DNA of 64,000 nt from Verrucomicrobiia bacterium (lineage in GTDB: Bacteria > Verrucomicrobiota > Verrucomicrobiia > Limisphaerales > UBA11358), in contig JBAVOO010000038.1 in the NCBI GenBank assembly GCA_049692125.1, positions 5,588-69,587 on the forward strand, written 5' to 3'. Each line of letters starts with the position of its first letter. The stretch's first letter is position 1. Both the position numbers and the translations under genes were made by a program. The notes beneath the pieces were generated by a model. It saw nothing but the letters and a program-made list of their open reading frames with translations, was not told the origin of the DNA and did not search any database. Below, piece after piece: positions 2,996-42,700 of the stretch.

Positions 2996-3159
2996 GTTAA
3001 AGCGGTTGATTTAATCCACCGCGGATCCGGTTTGACGTGAAGTTCGCGGCCTGGCAGGCGTGTTTCGTCCGTCCGGCCAACCCGTTTCGGCCAAAGGCGG
3101 TGTATTGAACACCGCCCGGGCAAATTAGCGCGGTGCGGCGGGCAAGTCCGGGGACTGTC

Positions 3160-3303
3160 CCCCGTAGCGCAGGTTTCCAAACCTGCTGTATCGCCGATTT
3201 CCAAATCGGCAGCGCACCGAAACTCCTGCGCCCATTGAGCCTTTCCAAGTTCGCGGATTTGGAAATCCGCGACACAGCCGACTTGGAAGTCGGCGCTACG
3301 GGG
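3160..3303. repeat. Family A multi-hairpin palindromic repeat (type copy)
   Basis: Bounded by CCCCGTAGCGC ... GCGCTACGGGG. It contains four short stem-loops: gcaggtttccaaacctgc, gccgatttccaaatcggc, cgcggatttggaaatccgcg, gccgacttggaagtcggc. Related copies lie at 16086, 16708, 21494 and 36277. Confidence 0.8.
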
Positions 3304-3386
3304 GGCAAACTGGTACAGCGGGGCGGTCATATGAAATTTTCGCTATCACCGGGGGTGTTTTCGAGTATCATGCACTCAGTCGTTTT

Positions 3387-6300
3387 ATGGCCGTCGCTTT
3401 ACAATTCATCCTGAACGGCCGGATCGTCAGGGTTGAAAATTGTTCTCCGAACACGACGCTGCTTGAATTCCTGCGTCGCGCCGGCCTGACCGGCGCGAAG
3501 GAAGGTTGCGCCGAGGGCGACTGCGGCGCGTGCGCGGTCGTCATGGTTGACCGTGACGTGCAAGGGCGGCCTTGTTATCGCGCCATCAACAGTTGCCTCG
3601 TGCCGCTCTGCCTGATGGCGGGGCGTGAAATCGTCAGCGTCGAAGGCGTCGCGTCCGGTCAAGGCCTTCATCCCGTGCAGCGGAAAATGGTCGAGTGCCA
3701 CGGGTCCCAATGCGGCTACTGCACGCCGGGGTTCATCATGTCGCTCTTTGAGGGTTATTACCGCGACGACATCCATCAGCACGACGAACTGGACGATCAA
3801 CTCAGCGGCAATCTATGCCGCTGCACCGGCTACCGCCCGATTCGCGACGCAGCCATTGAAGCGTTTTCACTTCGTAGGAGTCGAGGTAACGAGACTCAAA
3901 CTAAAAGCAAAAATGAATTGGAGACTCCTTACGTCGTCTCCTACGGTCAGGATATTTTCGCCAAACGGCTGAAAAAGGCCGGCACCGGGCCGGACGGTGT
4001 CGAGTACGAATTCGGAAATGAGAAATTCTTCCGGCCAACCTCGCTGGTCCGGCTTCTGATGTTGCTTCAGCAGTTTCCCGACGGGCAACTCATCGCCGGG
4101 GCGACGGAACTGGGCCTCGACATCACCAAGCGTTACAAGAAATTCCGGACGCTGATTTCCGTCGAAGCCGTTTCCGAGCTGAATGGCATCCAATCCACTG
4201 AAACCGAATGGCAGATCGGTGCGGCGGCGACGCTGACGCAGATCGAGGAAAAAATGGCGGCAGAATTTCCCGCGCTCGGCGACATGTTGCGCGTGTTCGG
4301 TTCGCGGCTGATTCGCAATCGCGCCACGATGGGCGGCAACCTCGTCACCGCTTCGCCCATTGGCGACAGCGCGCCCGTGCTGCTGGCGTTGGACTCGAAA
4401 GTGGTGCTTGTAGGACAGGCTTCCAGCCTGTCTCCATCTAAAACGGAAAAGTTAGAGACAGGCGCGACGCCTGTCCTCCAGGAGCGCATTTTGCCGATTG
4501 AGCAATTCTTCGTCGCCTACCGCAAAACCGCGCTTCAGCCCGGCGAGATCCTGAAAACCATCATTGTGCCGCGCGGGGTGCCAAAACCGGGACTGGCGCG
4601 TAAATGTTCGTGGTTCAAAGCGTCCAAACGGCGCGAGATGGACATCAGCACGGTGGCCGCCTGCTTCACGGTGGATCTGGACGAACAGAACGTCGTGCGT
4701 TATGCGCGTCTGGCCTACGGGGGCGTGGCGGCGATGCCCGCCCGCGCGAAGAAAACCGAGTCGGCACTGTCCGGCAAAGTCTGGAGCAACGAAACCATTG
4801 CCGGCGTGCTGCCCATTTTGCGGACGGAGTTCAACCCCATCTCCGATGTTCGCGGCTCGGCGGAGTATCGCCGCGGATTGATCACCGGCTTGCTGGAAAA
4901 GTTTTTTCACGATTCGGAGGGGCGAGTTACACGAGTCCTTGACTCAAATGGAATTGATTTGGGGCTCGCAGAGTTCGCCCCTCCGAAACAGTCAAACCGC
5001 CCTCCGCCGCACGAAAGCGGCCACAAGCACGCCACCGGCGAGGCAATCTACACGGATGATTTCGGCGCCCGAAAACAAATGCTCGAAGTCTGGCCGGTGT
5101 GTGCGCCTCATGCTCGCGCGAAAATCTTGAAGCGCGACGCTTCGGCGGCAAAGCAGATGCCGGGAGTCGCCGCGGTTTTGCTGGCGGAAGATGTGCCGGG
5201 GTTGAACGATGTCGGCGCCGTGCGGCGGGACGAAATCCTGCTGGCGGACAAGGAGGTTTTTTATCACGGCCAGATCATTGCGCTGGTTGTCGGCGAAACT
5301 CAGGAAGCCTGCCGCTCCGCCGCGGATAAAATAATTGTCGAATACGAACCGCTGCCGCCCCTTCTGAAAATCGAGGAGGCCATCGCGCACAATAGCTTTC
5401 ACACCGAGCCGAATTTCATCCGGCGCGGCGACGTTCAGGGGGCGTTAAAAAAATCTCCGCAGGTTCTTGATGGGGAATTTTACATGGCCGGGCAGGAACA
5501 TTTTTATCTGGAAATGCAGGCGGCCTGCGCGGAGCCGGGCGAGGATGGCTCGATGTTCGTGATGTCCTCGACGCAGCATCCGTCCGAGGTGCAGCACATC
5601 GTCGCACACCTGTTGCACGTGCCGGTGAATCACGTCGTCGTGCAAAGCCCCCGCATGGGCGGCGGCTTTGGCGGCAAGGAAACGCAGGCTGCCACCTTTG
5701 CCGCGCTGGCGGCGCTGGCGGCGGCGAAAACCAAACACCCCGTGCGCGTGCGCGTGAACCGCGATCTCGACATGATGATTACCGGCAAGCGTCATCCGTT
5801 TCTGGCGAAGTTCAAAGTGGGCTACAATTCCGACGGCGATTTGCTCGCGGCAAAAATCGAATTGATCTCCAACGGCGGCTGGTCCCTCGATTTGTCCGTG
5901 CCGGTGACGGACCGCGCGGTGTTTCATCTGGACAATGCGTATTTTATCCCGGCGGTTGAATTTTCCGGGCAGGTCGCCAAAACCAATCTGGCGTCGAACA
6001 CGGCATTTCGCGGGTTCGGCGGACCGCAAGGCATGCTGGTCATCGAGGAAATTATTGACCGCATTGCGCGGCGGCTCGGCAAAGCGCCGGAGCAAATCCG
6101 CGAGCGGAATCTGTATCGCGGCAATGGCGAAACGAACACGACGCATTACGGACAGGAAATCGAGGACAACCGCATCCAGCGCGTCTGGCACGAATTGAAG
6201 GACAGCACCGGGTTTGAAAAACGTCGGGGGGAAATTGCGAAATGGAATGCGGACCATCCGCATCGCAAGCGCGGACTGGCCATGACGCCGGTGAAATTCG

Positions 6301-7313
6301 GGATTTCGTTTACGATGACGCATTTGAACCAGGCGGGCGCGCTGGTTTTGATTTATCAGGACGGCACGGTGCAGGTGAACCACGGCGCGACGGAAATGGG
6401 CCAGGGGGTTCACACGAACATTGCCATGATTGCGGCCCGGGAGCTTGGAATTTCGTTGGACAACGTTCGCGTCATGCCGACGAGCACGGACAAGGTGCCG
6501 AACACTTCGGCGACAGCCGCGTCGTGCGGCACGGACCTGAACGGGATGGCGGTGAAAAATGCGTGCGAAGTTTTGCGGGCCCGGCTGGCGCCGGTGGCGG
6601 CCAAACTGCTATCCAACGCCAGCGGACGTGAAGTCACGCCGGACAAGGTCGTGTTTGCGGACAATTTTGTTTCCGCCGCTGATGTTGTTTCCGGTGCCGG
6701 ATCGGGAGAGATAAAACTCGCGTTCAAGGAAGTTGTGGTCCCCGCACACATGCAGCGCATCAGCCTGTCTTCCACTGGGTTTTATCGCACGCCGGAAATC
6801 CATTACGACCGCGCAAAGGGCAAGGGCAGACCGTTCCATTATTTCGCGGTCGGCGCGGCAGTCACAGAAGTCGAGGTGGACGGGTTCACGGGCATGACCA
6901 AAATTTTGCGCACGGATATTTTGCACGACGCGGGCGACTCGATTAATCCGGGTATCAATCTTGGCCAGATTGAAGGCGGCTTCGTGCAGGGCGCGGGCTG
7001 GCTGACGTGCGAGGAGTTGGTTTGGAACGACCAGGGCGTTTTGCTGACACACTCGCCGGACACCTACAAAATTCCCGCCGTTGGCGACCGGCCGCTGGAG
7101 TTCAACGTGCAATTCCTCAAGAACGCGACCCAACCCAACACGATTCACGGCAGCAAAGCCGTCGGTGAGCCGCCGTTGATGCTGGCGATTTCCGTGCGCG
7201 AGGCGATCCGCGATGCAGTGGCAGCGTTTGGCTCCGGCCAAGGCGAAATTGCGCTCGCCGTGCCGGCCACCGGTGAGGCGATTTGGATGGCGATTCAGAA
7301 ACAACGAAAATGA
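3387..7313 (+). CDS. xdh: Xanthine dehydrogenase, single polypeptide (2Fe-2S + FAD + molybdopterin domains; XdhA-XdhB fusion)
   Basis: 1308 aa. N-terminal CAEGDCGACAV and CGYCTPGFIMS...CRCTGY FeS motifs; FAD domain (ATMGGNLVTASPIGD); Mo domain (QSPRMGGGFGGKET, GATEMGQG, KAVGEPP). The ORF is continuous. Confidence 0.92.
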   Translation: MAVALQFILNGRIVRVENCSPNTTLLEFLRRAGLTGAKEGCAEGDCGACAVVMVDRDVQGRPCYRAINSCLVPLCLMAGREIVSVEGVASGQGLHPVQRKMVECHGSQCGYCTPGFIMSLFEGYYRDDIHQHDELDDQLSGNLCRCTGYRPIRDAAIEAFSLRRSRGNETQTKSKNELETPYVVSYGQDIFAKRLKKAGTGPDGVEYEFGNEKFFRPTSLVRLLMLLQQFPDGQLIAGATELGLDITKRYKKFRTLISVEAVSELNGIQSTETEWQIGAAATLTQIEEKMAAEFPALGDMLRVFGSRLIRNRATMGGNLVTASPIGDSAPVLLALDSKVVLVGQASSLSPSKTEKLETGATPVLQERILPIEQFFVAYRKTALQPGEILKTIIVPRGVPKPGLARKCSWFKASKRREMDISTVAACFTVDLDEQNVVRYARLAYGGVAAMPARAKKTESALSGKVWSNETIAGVLPILRTEFNPISDVRGSAEYRRGLITGLLEKFFHDSEGRVTRVLDSNGIDLGLAEFAPPKQSNRPPPHESGHKHATGEAIYTDDFGARKQMLEVWPVCAPHARAKILKRDASAAKQMPGVAAVLLAEDVPGLNDVGAVRRDEILLADKEVFYHGQIIALVVGETQEACRSAADKIIVEYEPLPPLLKIEEAIAHNSFHTEPNFIRRGDVQGALKKSPQVLDGEFYMAGQEHFYLEMQAACAEPGEDGSMFVMSSTQHPSEVQHIVAHLLHVPVNHVVVQSPRMGGGFGGKETQAATFAALAALAAAKTKHPVRVRVNRDLDMMITGKRHPFLAKFKVGYNSDGDLLAAKIELISNGGWSLDLSVPVTDRAVFHLDNAYFIPAVEFSGQVAKTNLASNTAFRGFGGPQGMLVIEEIIDRIARRLGKAPEQIRERNLYRGNGETNTTHYGQEIEDNRIQRVWHELKDSTGFEKRRGEIAKWNADHPHRKRGLAMTPVKFGISFTMTHLNQAGALVLIYQDGTVQVNHGATEMGQGVHTNIAMIAARELGISLDNVRVMPTSTDKVPNTSATAASCGTDLNGMAVKNACEVLRARLAPVAAKLLSNASGREVTPDKVVFADNFVSAADVVSGAGSGEIKLAFKEVVVPAHMQRISLSSTGFYRTPEIHYDRAKGKGRPFHYFAVGAAVTEVEVDGFTGMTKILRTDILHDAGDSINPGINLGQIEGGFVQGAGWLTCEELVWNDQGVLLTHSPDTYKIPAVGDRPLEFNVQFLKNATQPNTIHGSKAVGEPPLMLAISVREAIRDAVAAFGSGQGEIALAVPATGEAIWMAIQKQRK
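3874..3944. repeat. Family C palindromic repeat inside xdh (FeS/FAD interdomain region)
   Basis: Termini gtaggagtcgaggtaacgagactc ... gagactccttacgtcgtctcctac. A related copy in opposite orientation lies at 36346-36417. Encodes ...RRSRGNETQTKSKNELETPYVVSY.... Confidence 0.7.
4410..4479. repeat. Family A-like two-hairpin repeat inside the xdh FAD domain
   Basis: Sequence gtaggacaggcttccagcctgtc ... gacaggcgcgacgcctgtcctcc. The caggctttccagcctg-type hairpin resembles the one at 16091. Encodes ...VGQASSLSPSKTEKLETGATPVLQ.... Confidence 0.6.
4916..4984. repeat. Family B repeat (GGAGGGGCGAG ... TTCGCCCCTCC) forming the XdhA/XdhB linker
   Basis: 69 bp. The inverted termini and the internal ggctcgc(a/g)(g/a)g box are shared with the copies at 32665-32770 and 34544-34621. 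Confidence 0.7.
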
Positions 7314-12794: not shown

Positions 12795-14312
12795 TCAGTC
12801 ACGCGATTCGACCTGTTGGTTGAACTCTTCAATCAACTGGTCGAAATACGCGACTTCGTCCTCGAACAACGCCCGCCAGTATTCCGGATTCCATTGTTCC
12901 GTCAGCTCGGCTGAAGTTTTCCCCTGCTGCTCGACCCAGGTGTAATACTTGAGATTGTGAATCGCCTTGCGCTCCGGATAGGTCAGTTCCTTGAAGTAAT
13001 CCACACTCTGGTGCGCGAGCGGGCCGGCAAAGTCAGCGACCGCGTCCTGCGCGCGATATGCGCCGCGCTCGTGCTTCAATTCCTCGACGCGCGAGCCGTA
13101 AAGCTCGGTGGAGTCGGTGAACACGGTGAAAATCACATCCCGCTCGGTCAGTTCGAAATGTTTTGCGGTCTTGATGGCGGCGAGCAGGTTGCAGATGCTG
13201 GAAATGCCGAGCAGCGGCAACGATTCCAACTCTTTCGCCTTCACCCCGAGCGAGGCGAGATGTTTCTGGCCGGCGGCTTCGTTGAACACGCGGAGAATTC
13301 TCATGCAATCCTCGTCGTCAATTGCGGCGACCGCGTCAGTGTTGCGGACGTTGTGAACCCACGGGACATGTTTGTCGCCGATGCCTTCGATGCGGTGATC
13401 ACCAAAGCCGTTCATCAGCAGAGTGGGGCACTGCAATGCTTCGGTCGCGACGATCTTCAGGGCGGGATGCTGCTTCTTCAGGTAATCGCCTGCCGCGATG
13501 GTGCCGGCGGAACCGGTTGCGGAAATGTAAGCCGCTGCGCGCAACGGAGCGCGGCGTTCACGCCGCTTCACCGTCCTAGCCGAAGCGGCGTAAACGCCGC
13601 GCTCCGACGCATTAAGTTTTTGAAAAACCTCGTCAATGGCCGGGCCGGTCACGTTGTAGTGAAAGATCGGATTACCGAATTCATCGAACTGGTTGAAGAT
13701 GACGTTCAGTGGGTCCTTTTTCAGTTCCCAACATTTGTCGTAAATCTCCTTCACGTTCGATTCGCAGCCAGGCGTGGCGATGATTTCCGCGCCAATCTTC
13801 TTCAGCCACTCGAAGCGTTCACGCGACATGCCCTGCGGCAGAATCGCGATGGCCGTGCAGTCCAGCACGGCACAGTCAAACGCGCCCCCGCGGCAAAAAT
13901 TTCCCGTGGACGGCCATGCGGCCTTGTGCTTCTCGGGATCGAACTCGCCGCTCACCAATCGCGGCACGAGGCAGCCAAACGCCGCGCCGACCTTGTGCGC
14001 GCCGGTCGGGAAATATTTTCCAACCAGCCCGATGACGCGCGCCTTGACGCCGGTGATGGCCGGCGGAATTTCCAGATAATTCACGCCGCCGTAGAAACCT
14101 GTCTTCATGTCGTTCTTCCAGGTGATGCGAAAAAGATTCACTGGATTCACGTCCCACAGCCCGACGCCTTTGAGCTTTCGCTTGATGGCGGGCGGGATGA
14201 GTTCCGGATTCCGCAGTTGCTTGAACGTGGGCAACACGATGCCGCGTTTGCGGCAGCGCGCCGCGGTTTTCCTGATGACCTCCGGATGCAGACGTTTTAT
14301 GATTTTGGACAT
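12795..14312 (-). CDS. Fold-type-II PLP-dependent enzyme (cysteine synthase / Trp-synthase-beta superfamily), 505 aa, function unknown
   Basis: PLP-lysine context FPTGAHKVGAAFG and Gly-rich loop ISATGSAGTIAAG. It is longer than classical CysK/CBS cores. First gene of the yge-like cluster. Confidence 0.85.
   Translation of the reverse strand: MSKIIKRLHPEVIRKTAARCRKRGIVLPTFKQLRNPELIPPAIKRKLKGVGLWDVNPVNLFRITWKNDMKTGFYGGVNYLEIPPAITGVKARVIGLVGKYFPTGAHKVGAAFGCLVPRLVSGEFDPEKHKAAWPSTGNFCRGGAFDCAVLDCTAIAILPQGMSRERFEWLKKIGAEIIATPGCESNVKEIYDKCWELKKDPLNVIFNQFDEFGNPIFHYNVTGPAIDEVFQKLNASERGVYAASARTVKRRERRAPLRAAAYISATGSAGTIAAGDYLKKQHPALKIVATEALQCPTLLMNGFGDHRIEGIGDKHVPWVHNVRNTDAVAAIDDEDCMRILRVFNEAAGQKHLASLGVKAKELESLPLLGISSICNLLAAIKTAKHFELTERDVIFTVFTDSTELYGSRVEELKHERGAYRAQDAVADFAGPLAHQSVDYFKELTYPERKAIHNLKYYTWVEQQGKTSAELTEQWNPEYWRALFEDEVAYFDQLIEEFNQQVESRD
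13546..13605. repeat. 60-bp near-perfect hairpin inserted in frame in the PLP-enzyme gene
   Basis: Arms ggagcgcggcgttcacgccgcttc and gaagcggcgtaaacgccgcgctcc (23/24 complementary) around a 12-nt loop. Encodes roughly ERGVYAASARTVKRRERRAP on the minus strand. Confidence 0.8.
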
Positions 14313-14392
14313 GGCTCGCGAATCTTACTAAGAAACGCGGCAAAAGGGAATTGAAGAAAAGCCCCGCGAGTTTGCCGAAAAGGGAATGAGAT

Positions 14393-16085: not shown

Positions 16086-16194
16086 GTGGCGCAGGCTTTC
16101 CAGCCTGCGGGTTCTGGGGACTTTCCAATCCCCAGTCTCTGGAACACGGGACAAGAATGTCCCGTGAACCCGCAGACAGGAATGTCTGCGCTAC
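16086..16194. repeat. Family A multi-hairpin repeat
   Basis: GTGGCGC ... GCGCTAC. Hairpins: gcaggctttccagcctgc, ggggactttccaatcccc, cgggacaagaatgtcccg, gcagacaggaatgtctgc. Confidence 0.8.
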
Positions 16195-21466: not shown

Positions 21467-21493
21467 ATTCGCAGGACAAACGTCGCGCCTGTC

Positions 21494-21611
21494 GTAGCGC
21501 AGACTTCCAAGTCTGCTGTATCGCGGGTTTCCCAACCCGCAGCCCGCACAACATCGAACGCCCCGCCGATTTGGAAATCGGCGATACAGCAGGTTGGGAA
21601 ACCTGCGCTAC
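21494..21611. repeat. Family A multi-hairpin repeat
   Basis: GTAGCGC ... GCGCTAC. Hairpins: gcagacttccaagtctgc, cgggtttcccaacccg, gccgatttggaaatcggc, gcaggttgggaaacctgc. Confidence 0.8.
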
Positions 21612-21669
21612 GAGCGATTCTATCCGCCGCTCGGGTGTTGATGGACACGCTTTTCATTCTTCCAGTTCG

Positions 21670-36345: not shown

Positions 36346-36417
36346 GTAGGAGCCGACGTGAGGAGGCTCTGACTGAAACCCCGAATTGGAAATGAGTCTC
36401 GTTACCTCGTCTCCTAC
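36346..36417. repeat. Family C palindromic repeat (intergenic copy)
   Basis: Termini gtaggagccgacgtgaggaggctc ... gagtctcgttacctcgtctcctac. The right arm's reverse complement differs by 1 nt from the left arm of the 3874 copy. Confidence 0.7.
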
Positions 36418-36432
36418 AAAAAATGACAACGG

Positions 36433-37572: not shown

Positions 37573-37757
37573 GACGCTGCCGTCCTTGTCCTCGTTTATT
37601 GAATAAGGAAACCAAGAACCCAAGAAGGCGGAAGCGAAGCCAGTTCATGGTTTCATGGATTCCTTATTGAATCCAAAGACGGCGCGCACGGAGTGACGCG
37701 CCCTACCTTCGTGTAGTTCGTGTGTTTCGTGGTTAATGAATTCCTTGTTCTGATCTT

Positions 37758-38732
37758 TCATCCGCCGATGGCGGTCATCGGGCGGCAGGGCTGGTATTGA
37801 TTGCGGAACTGGTGTTCCAGCGGTTTCACTCGCAGCGCGGTTTCCAGCAATTCCCGCAATGCGCCATCGCTGGCGCCGCTCCGCAACGCCGCGCGAAGAT
37901 CCACTTCGACATGGTTGCCGAGACAGGGACGCACCTTGCCGTCGGCGGTCAGCCGCATCTTGTTGCAGTTGTCGCAGAAATGCTCGTTCGTCAGCGCGCC
38001 GACGAAGCCAACCATGGCGCCGGTTTGTTTCAGCCGGAAATACTTCGCCGGCCCGTGGCCGAGACGGCACTCCGGCTGCGGAATCAATTCATCGTGCCGG
38101 GACAGGAATTGCATCACCTCGCCGCAGGGCAGGAAATTTTTCTCCGTCAAAACCTCGGTCGTCGTCAGCGGCATCAATTCGATGAGTCGCAGCGGCAGGC
38201 CGTGTTCCGCGGCGAACCGGACCAGCGGCCAGATTTCCGCCTCGTTCACGCCGCGCATGAGCACACAGTTCAGTTTCACGCGTTCAAAACCAGCGTCCAC
38301 CGCCGCGCGGATGCCGGCCAGCACGCGCGCCACGTCGCCGCCGGTGATGCGGTGGTAAATCGCCGGGTCCAGCGCGTCGAGGCTCACGTTCACCGTGCGC
38401 AAGCCGGCATCGCGCAAGGCTTTCGTGAGCGCGGCCAGCTTCATTCCGTTGGTGGAAAGCCCGATGCATTCCACGCCGGGAATTGCCGACATGGCGCGGA
38501 CGATTTCCGGCACGTCGCCGCGCACGAGCGGTTCGCCGCCGGTCAGCCGGAATTTGCGGAAGCCCAGCCCCGCCGCCACGCGCACGACGCGGACGATTTC
38601 CTCCGCCGTCAGATGGTCGGACTGGCGTTCCCAGCCCTTGTAACCCTCCGGCATGCAGTAGAGACAACGCTCGTTGCACCGGTCGGTGACCGAGATGCGC
38701 AGGTAATCAATTTTTCGTCCAAACGGATCCAT
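37758..38732 (-). CDS. moaA: GTP 3',8-cyclase MoaA (radical SAM)
   Basis: YLRISVTDRCNERCLYCMP; C-terminal CDNCNKMRLTADGKVRPCL. Confidence 0.93.
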   Translation of the reverse strand: MDPFGRKIDYLRISVTDRCNERCLYCMPEGYKGWERQSDHLTAEEIVRVVRVAAGLGFRKFRLTGGEPLVRGDVPEIVRAMSAIPGVECIGLSTNGMKLAALTKALRDAGLRTVNVSLDALDPAIYHRITGGDVARVLAGIRAAVDAGFERVKLNCVLMRGVNEAEIWPLVRFAAEHGLPLRLIELMPLTTTEVLTEKNFLPCGEVMQFLSRHDELIPQPECRLGHGPAKYFRLKQTGAMVGFVGALTNEHFCDNCNKMRLTADGKVRPCLGNHVEVDLRAALRSGASDGALRELLETALRVKPLEHQFRNQYQPCRPMTAIGG

Positions 38733-38770
38733 GCAAATTCATTTTAAACCACGAAACACACGAAAAAATT

Positions 38771-38836
38771 GGAACGCCGAGCACCGTCTCGGCTCGATTC
38801 CAATGATTTTCGTGCCGAGGCAGTGCTCGGCGCTCC
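38771..38836. repeat. Family D repeat (GGAACGCCGAGCACCG ... GTGCTCGGCGCTCC), intergenic copy
   Basis: Nearly identical core to 41225-41296. It is flanked by cacgaaacacacgaa / ttcgtgtttttcgtgg inverted motifs. Confidence 0.75.
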
Positions 38837-38871
38837 GTTCAGTTGCCTTCGTGTTTTTCGTGGTTTCCATT

Positions 38872-39360
38872 TTATTTCTCGTGCGGATCTTCGCCGCGCA
38901 AATGCGCCAGCCCTTCGCGGATGGCCGGCGCGAGAATTTCCAGGCACTCGCGCACTGCCGACGGCCTGCCCGGCAGATTCACAATCAAACACGCGCCGCG
39001 CGTCCCGGCCACGGCGCGCGACAGGATGGCCGTCTTCACCCGCGTCAGCGATTGCATCCGCATTGCCTCGCCGAAACCCGGCAGCTCTTTTTCCAGCACG
39101 GCACTGGTCGCCTCCGGCGTCACATCGCGCGCGGAAATTCCCGTGCCTCCCGTCGTCACCACCATATCACATTTTTGCACGTCGGCGAGCTTTCTCAATG
39201 CCGCCGAAATCAATTCCACCTCATCCGGCACGATAAGCGACTCGAATTTCACGGCGTCGCCGAGAAATTCGCGCAACACGTTCTCAATCTCCGGCCCGCT
39301 GCGGTCGGCGTAAACGCCCGCCGAGGCGCGGTCGCTGACGGTGAGGCGGCCGATTTTCAT
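38872..39360 (-). CDS. mog: Molybdopterin adenylyltransferase MogA
   Basis: VSDRASAGVYADRSGP, TTGGTGISARDVTPEA and PGFGEAMR match E. coli MogA. Confidence 0.88.
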   Translation of the reverse strand: MKIGRLTVSDRASAGVYADRSGPEIENVLREFLGDAVKFESLIVPDEVELISAALRKLADVQKCDMVVTTGGTGISARDVTPEATSAVLEKELPGFGEAMRMQSLTRVKTAILSRAVAGTRGACLIVNLPGRPSAVRECLEILAPAIREGLAHLRGEDPHEK

Positions 39361-39385: not shown

Positions 39386-39469
39386 GTCTTGGACTGCGGC
39401 AGCCCTCTGCCGCTTTGGAATCACCAGTCCGCGCGCAAAAAGCGCCAGAGGGCTGGCGCACTCCAAGAC
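39386..39469. repeat. Family E repeat (intergenic copy)
   Basis: Sequence gtcttggactgcggcagccctctg ... cagagggctggcgcactccaagac. Confidence 0.65.
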
Positions 39470-39489: not shown

Positions 39490-39948
39490 TCACTCCAAGT
39501 CATGTTTCTCCTTTGTAACCACGTGTACATTTTCAATCCGCATGGTTTTGTCCACCGCCTTGCACATGTCGTATAGCGCCAGCGCGGCCACGGTCACGCC
39601 TGTCAACGCCTCCATCTCCACACCCGTCTGCGCGCAGGTCTCGGCGATGCAGATAATCTCAATTGCCACCCGTCCAACGCGAAAACTCACCTCGACATGA
39701 TCCAGCCCCAGCGGATGACAAAGCGGAATCAGCTCCGCCGTTCGTTTGGCGGCCTGGATGCCGGCGATTTGCGCCACGGTCAGCACGTCGCCCTTCGGCA
39801 AGACATTCTTTTTGAGGGCGTGAATGGTGGCTGGCGCACAAACCAGCCTGCCCTCAGCCACAGCGCGACGGCGCTGCACCGGCTTGTGGCCGACGTTGAC
39901 CATGCGCGCGCCGCCGTCGGCGTCGAGATGTGAAAATGTCTTTTTCAT
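39490..39948 (-). CDS. moaC: Cyclic pyranopterin monophosphate synthase MoaC
   Basis: MVNVGHKP...KGDVLTVAQIAGIQAAKRTAELIPLCHPL...GVEMEALT. Confidence 0.92.
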   Translation of the reverse strand: MKKTFSHLDADGGARMVNVGHKPVQRRRAVAEGRLVCAPATIHALKKNVLPKGDVLTVAQIAGIQAAKRTAELIPLCHPLGLDHVEVSFRVGRVAIEIICIAETCAQTGVEMEALTGVTVAALALYDMCKAVDKTMRIENVHVVTKEKHDLE

Positions 39949-40016: not shown

Positions 40017-41675
40017 TTATCCGCCGCCAAGCATAGCCGTCACTGGCAAAAAATCCACCCCGGCGAATTTTTCGATTACACCCTGGTTGGCCGGCACGCG
40101 GACCAGCGCATTCGCCGCCGCCAGGCAGGTGATGTCGCCGGAACTCGCCCAGGCCAGCGGGCGCAGGCGCGGCGCGGCATCATTCCATTCCCATCGGGCC
40201 GGCCAGAGCGTATCGCGCGGGCAGGGTTTGTCGTCGAGTTTTTCAGCAAGCTGCCCGCGCAGAAATTCCGGTGGTACACCGCCGGTCAGACCCGCCAGCG
40301 CCGTGGCGACGGCAAAATGGAAACAGACGAAATGCGAGAGCGGGTTGCCCGGCAGCCCGAAGGCCACGCGCGGGCCGTTCACGCCGAAGATCAGCGGCCG
40401 GCCGGGGCGCAGGTCAATCTGGCTGAATACGATTTCAAAGCCGAGCCGCTCAAATAACGCACGGGTAAAATCGGTTTCGCCCACGCTGGCGCCGCCGGAA
40501 ACCAGCAGCACGTCGGCGTTGCCGATAGCCGATAGCCGATAGCCGATAGCCGATTTTGCCCCCTCGAAATCCTCCGGCAAATGGGTTTGCTCCAGGTCGC
40601 ATGGAAAACTCTGGAGCAGGGCGCGGATGAGGATGGAATTGCTGTTGCGAATCTGGCCCGGTTTCGGCGTTCGGTCCGGCGGCACGATTTCATCACCGGT
40701 CGTAAAATGAACGACGCGCAATCGCGGGCTGACGGACGGATTGACATTTCCCGTCGTTGCCAGGATTGCCAGCGCACCGGCATTCAGTTTTGTTCCCGTG
40801 GACACAAGCGGCTGGCCTTGCCGCACCTCCTCGCCGCGCCGCCGGACGTTTGTCGAAATCTCCTGGCGCAAGAGACGGAGTTTGTCGCCGTCGCGTTCGA
40901 CGTATTCCTGCATCACCACGCGCAGGTTGTCGCACGGCAGCGCCGCGCCGGTCGCCACGCGCACGGCTTCGCCAGGTTTGAGCGGGCGCGGTTTCCAGTC
41001 GGCAGCATGAATCGTGTCCACGACGGAAAAAGTTTTCGACTCATCATCGGCGAGGATCGCATAACCGTCGCGCGTCGAGCGGTCCACCGGCGGCAAATCT
41101 TCCGGCGCGCAAACCGTTTCGCGCAGGACGCGCCCCAGCGCCTCGGCCAACGGCGTGCGTACGGCGGGCAACGGTTGGCAACGGGAGCGGATTTCTACAA
41201 TTGCTTCGTCCAGAGAGAGCGGTTGGAGCGCCGAGCACCGGCTCGGCGTGGTTCCAATGATATTTTGATTCGTGCCGAGGCGGTGCTCGGCGTTCCGGGC
41301 GCTTCGTTTCCAAATCGGCACGTCCTGCTTGAGGCGGTCCATGAATTCAGCCAGCAACGCAATGGCCTCGCCGCGATGCGGCGACGCCACGCCGACGTAA
41401 ATGGCCGTTTCGCCGGCGGGAATGACGCCGACGCGATGAATCACCCTGGCCGCCCGGCAGGGATGGCGCGCGGAAATGTCCTGCAGCAGCCGTCGGATTT
41501 CGCGCCCGGCCATTTCGGGATAGGCTTCGTATTCGAGGGCGCGGATGGCCTGGCCGTTTTCCTCACCACGAACCACCCCGCGAAATTCAAGCCACGCGCC
41601 GGCCGTGCCGGGTTGCCCTGGCGGTGAAATATTTTCCGCGATGGGCTGGTCGGTGAATTGGATTTCGATTTCCAT
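40017..41675 (-). CDS. MoaE-MoeA fusion (molybdopterin synthase catalytic subunit + molybdopterin molybdotransferase)
   Basis: Residues 1 to about 135 are MoaE (EYEAYPEMA...HRVGVIPAGE...SPHRGEAI...DVPIWK). From LSLDEAIV...AEALGRVLRE...STRDGYA onward it is MoeA. Single uninterrupted ORF of 552 aa. Confidence 0.9.
   Translation of the reverse strand: MEIEIQFTDQPIAENISPPGQPGTAGAWLEFRGVVRGEENGQAIRALEYEAYPEMAGREIRRLLQDISARHPCRAARVIHRVGVIPAGETAIYVGVASPHRGEAIALLAEFMDRLKQDVPIWKRSARNAEHRLGTNQNIIGTTPSRCSALQPLSLDEAIVEIRSRCQPLPAVRTPLAEALGRVLRETVCAPEDLPPVDRSTRDGYAILADDESKTFSVVDTIHAADWKPRPLKPGEAVRVATGAALPCDNLRVVMQEYVERDGDKLRLLRQEISTNVRRRGEEVRQGQPLVSTGTKLNAGALAILATTGNVNPSVSPRLRVVHFTTGDEIVPPDRTPKPGQIRNSNSILIRALLQSFPCDLEQTHLPEDFEGAKSAIGYRLSAIGNADVLLVSGGASVGETDFTRALFERLGFEIVFSQIDLRPGRPLIFGVNGPRVAFGLPGNPLSHFVCFHFAVATALAGLTGGVPPEFLRGQLAEKLDDKPCPRDTLWPARWEWNDAAPRLRPLAWASSGDITCLAAANALVRVPANQGVIEKFAGVDFLPVTAMLGGG
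40521..40554. repeat. Tandem heptanucleotide GCCGATA x4.8 inside the MoeA-coding part
   Basis: gccgata gccgata gccgata gccgata gccgat, read directly. Encodes ...SAIGYRLSAIG... on the minus strand. Confidence 0.85.
41225..41296. repeat. Family D repeat forming the MoaE/MoeA linker
   Basis: 72 bp, ggagcgccgagcaccggctcggc ... gccgaggcggtgctcggcgttcc. Encodes ...RNAEHRLGTNQNIIGTTPSRCSAL.... Confidence 0.75.
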
Positions 41676-41687
41676 GTGACAAATGGT

Positions 41688-41927
41688 TCAGCCGCCGGAC
41701 ACCGGCGGAATGAGTGCAACCTCGTCGCTATCGGCAAAAATGGCGTCGGGGGCGGCGTACTCCCAATTCCGCGCCAGCCGGACATTCGGGCGATGTGCGG
41801 CCAGTGCCGGAAAACGCTGCAATAACTCGGTCCAGAGCTGCGGGGCATTGAGCGGCGACGCGGCTGCGAGTTCCACGGCATCGCAGCGGGTGGCATCCTT
41901 GAGTTGGGCAAAAAAGAGAACACGCAT
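41688..41927 (-). CDS. moaD: Molybdopterin synthase sulfur-carrier subunit MoaD
   Basis: About 79 aa, ThiS/MoaD-like, ending in ...IPPVSGG. ATG at 41927; the ORF-track TTG at 41942 is less likely. Confidence 0.85.
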   Translation of the reverse strand: MRVLFFAQLKDATRCDAVELAAASPLNAPQLWTELLQRFPALAAHRPNVRLARNWEYAAPDAIFADSDEVALIPPVSGG

Positions 41928-41938
41928 GGCCGGAGAAT

Positions 41939-42700
41939 TCAAGCAGTGGCTTCAATCAACAATTTTCCGCCGGCAAAAATCAGCACGCCCGCCAGCACCC
42001 GGCTGAAGGTGACGCTGCTCCAGCGCCGCGCGCCGAAGTGCGTGCCGAGCAGCGCGCCGATGACGGCCGGCAGCGTGAGCCAGAGCAGCGGCCCGGCGTG
42101 CGTGATTTTTTCCCAGCCCGTGCCGGCGAGTCCGGCGATGGAGTTGAGCACGATGAACCCGGCCGCGATGCCGCCGGTGGTTTTCGGTTTCACCCAGCGG
42201 AACAGATACAGCAGCGGACTTAAAAAAACGCCGCCGCCAATGCCGGTCAGTCCCGCCAGGAATCCCAGCACGGCGCCGATGAGCAGCGCCAGCGGCAGGA
42301 AAAACTCATGCAGCACCACGTCGTCGGTCTGCCAGCGCGAACGCAGGAGCAGGACAAGTCCCGCCGCCGTCAGCACCGCGCCAAGGATGATTTTATAGAC
42401 CTGCGGACTGACGTGGACCCGGCTGCCCAGCCACGCGCACGGCACCGAGACGACCGCGAACGACAGCAGCACGCGCCAGTCGAAATGTCCCGCCCAGCCA
42501 AACCGCCACCACGCGATGCCGGCGACCAGAACATTGGCAATCAACACCGCCACGCGCGCGGACACGGGTGCGACTCCAACCAGCGCCAGTGCGGCGAGAT
42601 AACCCGTTGCGCCGCCGTGGCCGACTGACGAATAAAAAAACGCCACCGCAAAGACGGCGGCGAGCAAGATGGTCCAATTAAATGTCGTCAGGTCGTGCAT
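41939..42700 (-). CDS. TauE/SafE (TSUP, DUF81) family anion permease
   Basis: 253 aa, about 8 TM segments. SSVGHGGATGY and GIGGGVFLSPLL are duplicated TSUP motifs. Confidence 0.88.
   Translation of the reverse strand: MHDLTTFNWTILLAAVFAVAFFYSSVGHGGATGYLAALALVGVAPVSARVAVLIANVLVAGIAWWRFGWAGHFDWRVLLSFAVVSVPCAWLGSRVHVSPQVYKIILGAVLTAAGLVLLLRSRWQTDDVVLHEFFLPLALLIGAVLGFLAGLTGIGGGVFLSPLLYLFRWVKPKTTGGIAAGFIVLNSIAGLAGTGWEKITHAGPLLWLTLPAVIGALLGTHFGARRWSSVTFSRVLAGVLIFAGGKLLIEATA

Follow-up and report, generated by a model that had tools for sequence, protein, structure and literature searches.

When a repeated palindrome lies exactly where two protein modules have been fused, did the repeat build the fusion, or did it land in a linker that was already there? 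The question is raised by a 64,000-nucleotide stretch of DNA from a Verrucomicrobiia bacterium (hereafter the window), where a MoaE-MoeA fusion gene of molybdenum cofactor (Moco) synthesis, 552 codons long and on the minus strand (40017..41675), carries at 41225-41296 a 72-bp palindromic doublet of a repeat family here called D. We consider it likely, with good though not complete confidence, that the doublet is an in-frame insertion of the type known from repetitive extragenic palindromes (REPs) and their doublets (REPINs), lodged in the disordered linker of an ancestral MoaE-MoeA fusion. The element would be a non-autonomous REP doublet, each of its 23-nt arms a small hairpin, with a variable spacer between them, and would probably be mobilised by a REP-associated tyrosine transposase (RAYT) of the HUH type. 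It would have entered the DNA for the disordered linker of a fusion that long predates it. As the copy keeps the frame, it is translated into a flexible tether of ~24 residues, with which the enzyme presumably keeps working. The operon probably offers few sites other than the linker that tolerate an insertion of this kind, and in related species palindromic families would replace each other quickly there.

The gene is one uninterrupted frame in which Pfam assigns residues 24-117 to MoaE and recognises MoeA_N from residue 153 on, with the profile matched from its position 1, followed by MoCF_biosynth and MoeA_C. NCBIfam places MoaE at 22-132 and MoeA at 153-540 of the same 552-aa protein. The MoaE module (~residues 1-125) corresponds to 41675-41301 and the MoeA module (residues 153-552) to 41219-40020, with the stop codon at 40017-40019, all on the minus strand. 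In-frame ATG, GTG and TTG codons are absent between residues 119 and 169, and the only CTG is residue 155, which bears out a preliminary description of this DNA that had judged a separate MoeA start unlikely. All MoeA domains and MoaE are therefore read in one frame with no internal start. Gephyrin and plant Cnx1 are likewise Moco-enzyme fusions with a flexible linker of variable length and MoeA as one partner, and so share with MoaE-MoeA the plan of two Moco modules joined by a flexible tether. They differ in partner, which is MogA (the G domain) rather than MoaE, and in the origin of the linker, which is not known to be repeat-derived.

Read on the plus strand, the doublet consists of the arm GGAGCGCCGAGCACCGGCTCGGC at 41225-41247, a 26-nt spacer at 41248-41273 and the inverted arm GCCGAGGCGGTGCTCGGCGTTCC at 41274-41296 (arm sequence GGAGCGCCGAGCACCGNCTCGGC). 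On the coding, minus strand, positions 41297-41226 encode residues 127-150 of the protein (RNAEHRLGTNQNIIGTTPSRCSAL), so that the repeat-encoded linker proposed in the preliminary description is upheld, and with it the membership of the element in a dispersed family. Each arm, of the form GGAGC-GCCGAG-CACCGN-CTCGGC, has an internal stem of 6 bp and is a short imperfect palindrome as in REP units, and the two inverted units with their short spacer fold into a single hairpin, as REPINs do. Predicted folding energies are -48 kcal/mol (z -7.3) for the mRNA strand and -66.5 kcal/mol (z -8.3) for its complement. All six frames of the arms are free of stop codons. Four matches to the arm motif GCCGAGCACCGNCTCGGC occur in the window, one for each arm of two copies (0.03 matches expected by chance), and searches of the 64 kb by blastn-short and fuzzy patterns found no D copies beyond these two. 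In an AlphaFold2 model (mean predicted local distance difference test score, pLDDT, 67.7), residues 120-150 fall below a pLDDT of 50 and have nearly no secondary structure.

How old is the fusion? MoaE and MoeA are fused in all of the best 120 homologous proteins, which are 514-627 aa long and come mostly from soil and peat metagenomes, the named ones being metagenome-assembled genomes (MAGs) of Limisphaerales. Relatives keeping separate moaE and moeA genes at this locus, a state that the preliminary description had thought worth looking for, did not appear in a genome scan with one genome per species: both modules were present in 80/80 loci (51-82% identity), and in 77 of them they share a common open frame. 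In the three exceptions (L054, L074 and L078) the modules are out of frame or split by a stop; all three have isolate names beginning with MFD, and a single inserted base separates L054 from its in-frame relative L017. These breaks are probably indel errors of assembly; genuine pseudogenes or split genes are less likely. The frameshift in L078 brings the TAG of a GTAG repeat into frame as a stop codon. Mis-assembly is a familiar hazard at repeats, and together with the frameshifts or linker stops in 3/80 loci this leaves some room for the idea that the fusion is an artefact, produced by a mis-join at the repeat or by a sequencing error that hides a stop or frameshift, with two proteins really made. 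We regard it as the least credible of the readings weighed here, since independent assemblies agree in gene order and in the junction across many linkers, non-repeat linkers among them, MoeA has no start codon of its own, and the three exceptions stem from one MAG set, with the single base inserted in L054 looking like an indel error.

Because searches for homologues and loci rank by score and so favour fusions, representatives of clusters at 50% identity were also searched. Thirteen clusters, down to 34% identity, align along nearly the whole query and are fusions as well. In 12 of the 13 the linker is ~8-25 residues long, rich in P, A and S and without a palindrome; the closest cluster, P0121 (66% identity), has a longer linker and stands outside those 12. 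The nearest proteins with MoeA alone reach at most 52% identity. On this comparison of sequences, a fusion with a non-repeat linker is the ancestral state, from which it follows that the repeat did not make the fusion. Family D as the origin of the fusion is contradicted by these ancestral linkers, and the tie between repeat and fusion origin implied by the preliminary description does not hold. A more general version, in which loss of the moaE stop codon let translation run on through a stop-free REP doublet between moaE and moeA, has some attractions: the arms are stop-free in every frame, REP doublets are present in other intergenic spacers of the operon, and the distant non-repeat linkers could be fully decayed repeats, partial decay being seen in L034 and L076. 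It is nevertheless very improbable, as the D insertion is confined to a few sub-lineages of a clade already fused in every member, the fusions at 34-50% identity have linkers of 8-25 aa with no palindrome, these sequences included no separate moaE and moeA genes with a repeat between them, and nothing points to some other, earlier repeat having been present when the fusion first arose.

That the linker received a member of a mobile family, as in the reading we prefer, can be judged from the other copies of D. A metagenome scan for the doublet returned at least 120 contig stretches, with 123 D copies among the matches listed, to which the family figures given here and below refer. The search pattern fixed the 23-nt arms; the 4-nt termini, which it did not require, are conserved as GGAG or GGAA at one end and CTCC or TTCC at the other. 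The copies are 59-78 nt long, most often 71-72, with hypervariable spacers. There was no target-site duplication in 122 of the listed copies, direct repeats in the flanks being at chance level. The flanks have the form Y|GGAGC..GCTCC|R, with a pyrimidine at -1 in 96% and a purine at +1 in 90%, and no specific target sequence was found beyond these two bases. A miniature inverted-repeat transposable element, with terminal inverted repeats and a target-site duplication of the DDE kind, was considered and rejected, as there is no duplication and the arms are internally palindromic, REP-like units. D belongs to a superfamily with a common frame, GGAGCGCC followed by a 12-nt core, GGC..GCC, the facing core and GGCGCTCC, in which at least 8 core variants occur, each complementary between both arms.

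A RAYT-like protein is encoded in 6 of the 120 D-bearing stretches among the matches listed (L123, L141, L143, L162, L172 and L191). In L172 a single D doublet lies directly upstream of the gene. In the other five, a D doublet lies in frame inside the RAYT-like gene, second to an upstream one, and is placed between the HUH motif (PNHVHVLV) and WQREYWDTF, the region of the catalytic tyrosine. The protein matches the NCBIfam model REP_Tyr_transpos (NF047646) with an E value of 1e-20 and 74 bits and, once the element is removed, Pfam Y1_Tnp with 25.1 bits (cutoff 23). The truncated fragment, broken by the element, had no match in Pfam, while the full-length sequence did. The RAYT-like HUH/Y1 gene of L162 (1282-2170) is a transposase gene broken by its own cargo repeat.

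What occupies the same linker in related species? Across the 120 proteins and 80 loci the linker is bounded by the conserved flanks PIWKRRA and (L)xSLDEA, between which lie distinct classes of peptide: D (AEHRLG..PSRCSAL), D2 (AGLRPGA..RPAL), F (VGDDVRSL..ETPHVVSY), G (VAANVNLR..SADSHRRLQ), H (VGRVTPCAP..GGQGTARPT), I (ARLCAEHQPQ..AAAGSATTAALR), M (ERGSVSRS..AAGHRPALR), E (APLAPSLSPPGGERVAARPGEG), the further repeat classes J, L and O, and plain non-repeat linkers in more distant species. Wherever the DNA of the linker was read, the repeat classes (D, D2, E, F, G, H, I, J, L, M and O) proved to be palindromes, so that at least ten different palindromic families occupy orthologous MoaE-MoeA linkers. 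Their hairpins have z scores of -4 to -9, against ~0 for the distant non-repeat linkers. The DNA of F, G and H linkers begins with GTAG and ends with CTAC. Many of these families are found elsewhere too: the window holds other copies of F at 36346-36420 and 3871-3944 and of H near 37680-37706, and linker DNAs of D, D2, F, H, E, M and J match non-linker sites in other loci.

In a neighbour-joining distance tree from which the linker was left out, the linker families are scattered; as a distance tree of a single gene, it was relied on for close sister pairs only. Several pairs of sister species with ~90-97% nucleotide identity in the flanks have unrelated families in the linker, namely L003 (H) and L009 (D2), L018 (H) and L016 (E), L020 (G) and L072 (H), and L054 (E) and L071 (J). 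Truncated or decayed elements occupy the linkers of L034, L076, L063 and L029. The linker site of MoaE-MoeA is thus an insertion hotspot with fast turnover. As to the descent of all linkers of a family from a single insertion, spacers are homologous among D, G and some H alleles, while other H alleles differ. Where distant species have linkers of the same family, the adjacent end of MoaE, in which a recombination tract would raise identity, is conserved in all pairs; one pair, L001 and L035, reaches 0.98 identity over the last 60 nt. In sister pairs the first 30 nt of MoeA hold 5-8 differences, compared with 0-3 in other stretches, a figure that comes partly from two linker codons included in the count. 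One occupant may be replaced by another through insertion into the resident hairpin and subsequent deletion, through gene conversion of the arms, or through short tracts of recombination. More broadly, and here our confidence is low, permissive coding linkers of Limisphaerales may serve as landing pads for REPINs, with families exchanged over the time in which species diverge, at 3-10% nucleotide difference in the flanks, and the arms of orthologous in-frame copies actively maintained or re-templated. If this were true, RAYT-type machinery or hairpin-directed gene conversion would routinely edit coding DNA, or an mRNA hairpin between modules would be under selection.

Two side observations concern the same linker. 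In L005, which has a D linker, a perfect D2-type doublet lies at 2296-2367, ~1.7 kb upstream, so D and D2 coexist in one genome. The protein P0044 (525 aa, 80% identical to the window protein) has the linker PIWKRRAIADGARA, from which the whole I-type element and the SLDEA start of MoeA have been deleted, making it a natural near-linkerless fusion.

Is the hairpin itself kept? The D alleles of the window, L005, L067 and L184 are orthologous, because a homologous spacer is common to them. At third codon positions their arms are identical at 83 of 90 comparisons (92%) and the flanking codons at 528 of 900 (59%). Conservation of third positions in the arms and not in the flanks argues for constraint on the nucleotides rather than the peptide, and some constraint at the level of DNA or RNA would seem to act on the arms. 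The start of the spacer (GCGAATCAAAA) is retained in orthologous alleles of D2 and of two other core types, whose arm cores have changed in mirror image. In the mirrored alignment, which comprises nine related sequences from families of which D and D2 both exist dispersed, 90.6% of cells are paired, against 32-39% in slid controls. Seven pairs and 20 cells changed on both sides; the cell count and the covariation score were reached in 0 of 500 shuffles, and the pair count in 91 of 500. The one free internal position of the arm shows weak covariation in the 123 listed D copies, with 56 Watson-Crick pairs against 47.5 expected. This pattern in the arms could reflect selection on the hairpin, gene conversion templated by copies elsewhere in the genome, or correction inside the hairpin itself.

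The first of these would make the hairpin a retained RNA or DNA element, whether through ribosome pausing for co-translational folding, mRNA stability or processing, or a protein-binding site, with the palindromic families as interchangeable suppliers of hairpins; a mobile origin would fit with it. In the repeat-rich clade most linkers do have a strong hairpin, whichever family they hold, and both the excess of identical third positions in the arms and the mirrored changes of arm cores beside a shared spacer, in orthologous D, D2 and related alleles, count in its favour. We nonetheless think it unlikely: deep-branching fusions work without a hairpin (z ~0), four relatives have truncated or decayed linkers, and the same families occur at many unrelated sites. 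Gene conversion or correction within the hairpin could also give the conserved arms and the mirrored changes, covariation at the free arm position is weak, and the mirrored alignment has only nine sequences, with D and D2 being separate dispersed families.

Several points tell against our preferred reading of the doublet as a tolerated REPIN-type insertion. The conservation of the arms at synonymous sites exceeds what a passively tolerated insertion predicts. D starts with GGAG (or GGAA) and not with the canonical GTAG of RAYT-associated REPs, and the RAYT-like protein, at 74 bits, scores under the curated NCBIfam cutoff of 80. By tblastn, a RAYT gene is absent from the window and from L001-L080, for which reason the RAYT link rests on contigs of other organisms. 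The 64 kb of the source genome contain only 2 D copies. The window copy is translated and lacks an extragenic location, a departure documented for other REPs (PMC3733652). The reading also presumes that the MoaE-MoeA protein is made and active.

Translated copies are common in the family. Of the 123 D copies among the matches listed, 49 are within an open frame that runs for 80 codons or more to either side, and the arms are read in all three reading frames. Twenty of these in-frame copies were inspected, and most are in recognisable genes, 10 confirmed by Pfam and the rest named by eye; at least two look spurious. The genes include a CusA-like resistance-nodulation-division (RND) pump, MetH, RecQ, the molybdenum subunit of a xanthine dehydrogenase (XDH), an FtsK-like protein, UvrB (twice), a GH35 enzyme, HypF, ProRS, MutS (twice), CstA, ETF-QO and MoaE-MoeA (twice). 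Among 10 genes other than MoaE-MoeA analysed with Pfam, 6 have D between domains or between halves and 3 have it in what look like loops inside a domain. It lies between domains in MetH (S-methyl_trans and Pterin_bind), XDH (MoCoBD_1 and MoCoBD_2), UvrB, the GH35 enzyme and MutS (III and V), where the two halves of the RND pump meet, and in apparent loops of the zinc-binding domain of RecQ, of HypF_C and of the editing domain of ProRS. Repeats are found at junctions because linkers tolerate insertions; placement at junctions is what purifying selection leaves, and is itself no evidence that repeats build fusions.

Other genes offer parallels of their own. The MutS orthologues of L183 and L107 (86% identical) have different palindromic families at one site in domain III/IV, with the peptides VAADARRLTS..SLLTSAAA and VGRASPRAE..ARENAPT, and both carry D at the III/V junction; turnover at one site is thus not special to MoaE-MoeA. 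The UvrB orthologues of L086 and L129 (84% identical) carry D at the same site with the unrelated spacers ASAANLPNQ and ARTGDSSYR, which means either very fast mutation or a site hit twice. In HypF of L142 two families are in frame, an F-type element (VGADVRRLKLQKQNESEPPHVGSY) and a D-type doublet.

Elements that behave in this way have been described before. Rickettsia palindromic elements (RPEs; Ogata et al., 2000, 2002; Claverie and Ogata, 2003; cited in PMC3733652) insert in frame in functional genes and are tolerated in surface or linker segments. RPE-1, at ~100-150 bp, is longer than D, and we know of no established association of RPE-1 with a RAYT. D resembles the RPEs in its in-frame behaviour rather than in sequence, which is presumably unrelated, and its host is here verrucomicrobial and not related to Rickettsia. 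The biology of REPs, REPINs and RAYTs has been worked out in Pseudomonas and enterobacteria (Bertels and Rainey, 2011; PMC3116915; also work by Nunvar, Ton-Hoang and Messing). D shares with these elements the inverted, short imperfect palindromes, the less conserved spacer, the hairpin formed by the whole element, the dispersal, the lack of a target-site duplication, sub-families with compensatory changes in the stem and, on contigs of other organisms, a RAYT-like HUH/Y1 gene that D repeats flank, and the linker families F, G and H begin with GTAG and end with CTAC as REPs do. It differs in its GGAG start, in the large share of copies translated inside coding sequence, and in the RAYT-like gene that in several contigs carries a D doublet in frame. 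Close to the present case are the intragenic GTAG/CGTC REPs, which are most numerous in the verrucomicrobium Opitutus terrae; over half of these REPs occur as dimers that encode 20-30 aa, and repair genes such as uvrB are frequent hosts (Di Nocera, De Gregorio and Rocco, 2013; PMC3733652). The likeness extends to in-frame dimers of 20-30 aa and to repair genes (here D in UvrB, MutS and RecQ), and the differences are the order, here Limisphaerales, and the repeat families. The element is a new case of the in-frame REP dimers already described from Opitutus terrae and, as RPEs, from Rickettsia. In the literature searched, part of it consulted in extract, we found neither one orthologous linker occupied by many families in succession nor in-frame arms conserved at synonymous sites; a RAYT-like gene with its own doublet in frame was likewise not found in that literature.

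The interest of the locus is carried by turnover and arm conservation more than by the insertion itself. Selfish palindromic DNA can, on this evidence, provide protein linkers and rewrite them time and again while an essential cofactor pathway stays unharmed, and the relatives provide ~200 natural linker-swap variants of one enzyme. Turnover at one site combined with conservation at synonymous sites also offers a tractable way into how REPINs move and persist. The locus corrects the tempting inference that repeats at fusion junctions cause fusions, and it holds a warning for annotation, as 'hypothetical' motifs such as AEHRLG..RCSAL, VGDDVRSL..ETPHVVSY and GRVTPCAP..GTARPT are translated repeats.

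The rest of the operon is also on the minus strand and is rich in repeats. Directly upstream of moaE-moeA lies moaD (41688..41942; ThiS fold, ending in GG), recognised from its translation, the order of genes in relatives and Pfam ThiS. Downstream follow moaC (39490..39948; Pfam MoaC at the equivalent place in L201, L202 and L203), a mog/moaB-type MoCF_biosynth gene (38872..39360) and, as the last gene, the radical SAM gene moaA (37758..38732). The order moaD, moaE-moeA, moaC, mog, moaA is kept in relatives.

The second D doublet of the window (38771..38836) is non-coding, has the same orientation as the linker copy and lies in the 139 nt that separate the stop of mog (38872) from the start of moaA (38732). 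It agrees with the linker copy at 59 of 66 aligned bases (89%), with a 6-nt gap in the spacer. The preliminary description had called the two almost identical; they are true relatives and the similarity is not spurious, while the wording was slightly generous. In L201 (83% protein identity) the gap between mog and moaA is only 1 nt, so the intergenic copy is specific to a lineage. It sits in the loop of an outer palindrome at 38747..38865, with arms AACCACGAAAMACACGAA at 38747-38764 and 38848-38865, and is a nested insertion; the nested fold has -41.8 kcal/mol (z -7.8). The outer arm occurs three times in the window (0.07 expected), the third copy at 37717-37734. This third arm lies downstream of moaA and adjoins the H-family fragment (~37680-37706). 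The best match of the intergenic spacer is the linker spacer of the window itself, tied first of 127. These features hint at recent copying of D within the operon and at a preference for insertion into hairpins, which would explain replacement at the same site. With an unrelated palindromic doublet (39386..39469; 31-nt arms, 90% complementary) in the spacer between moaC and mog, every junction of this operon is colonised by repeats.

Repeats occupy module junctions elsewhere in the window as well, presumably the other cases that the preliminary description had in mind. A fused Fe-S/FAD/Mo open reading frame (ORF) of the xanthine-dehydrogenase or CO-dehydrogenase type (3168-7310, plus strand, 1381 aa) comprises, by Pfam, the modules Fer2/Fer2_2, FAD_binding_5 with CO_deh_flav_C, and Ald_Xan_dh_C with MoCoBD_1/2. 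In-frame doublets lie at two of its subunit junctions, one of family F at 3871-3944 between Fer2_2 and FAD_binding_5 (Fe-S/FAD) and one at 4913-4987 between CO_deh_flav_C and Ald_Xan_dh_C (FAD/Mo); another, at 4409-4480, lies inside the FAD module, between its two domains. A palindrome with 25-nt arms (96% complementary) at 13545-13606 is in a stop-free frame of a PALP pyridoxal phosphate-dependent ORF (12798-14324, minus strand) and probably forms a loop insertion. Another abundant class of repeat in the window consists of GTAG-tagged, REP-like clusters (GTAGCGCAGG..TTCCAA..CCTGC) at 3156-3307, 16086-16194 and 21492-21613, which form long composite palindromes with arms of 47-55 nt.

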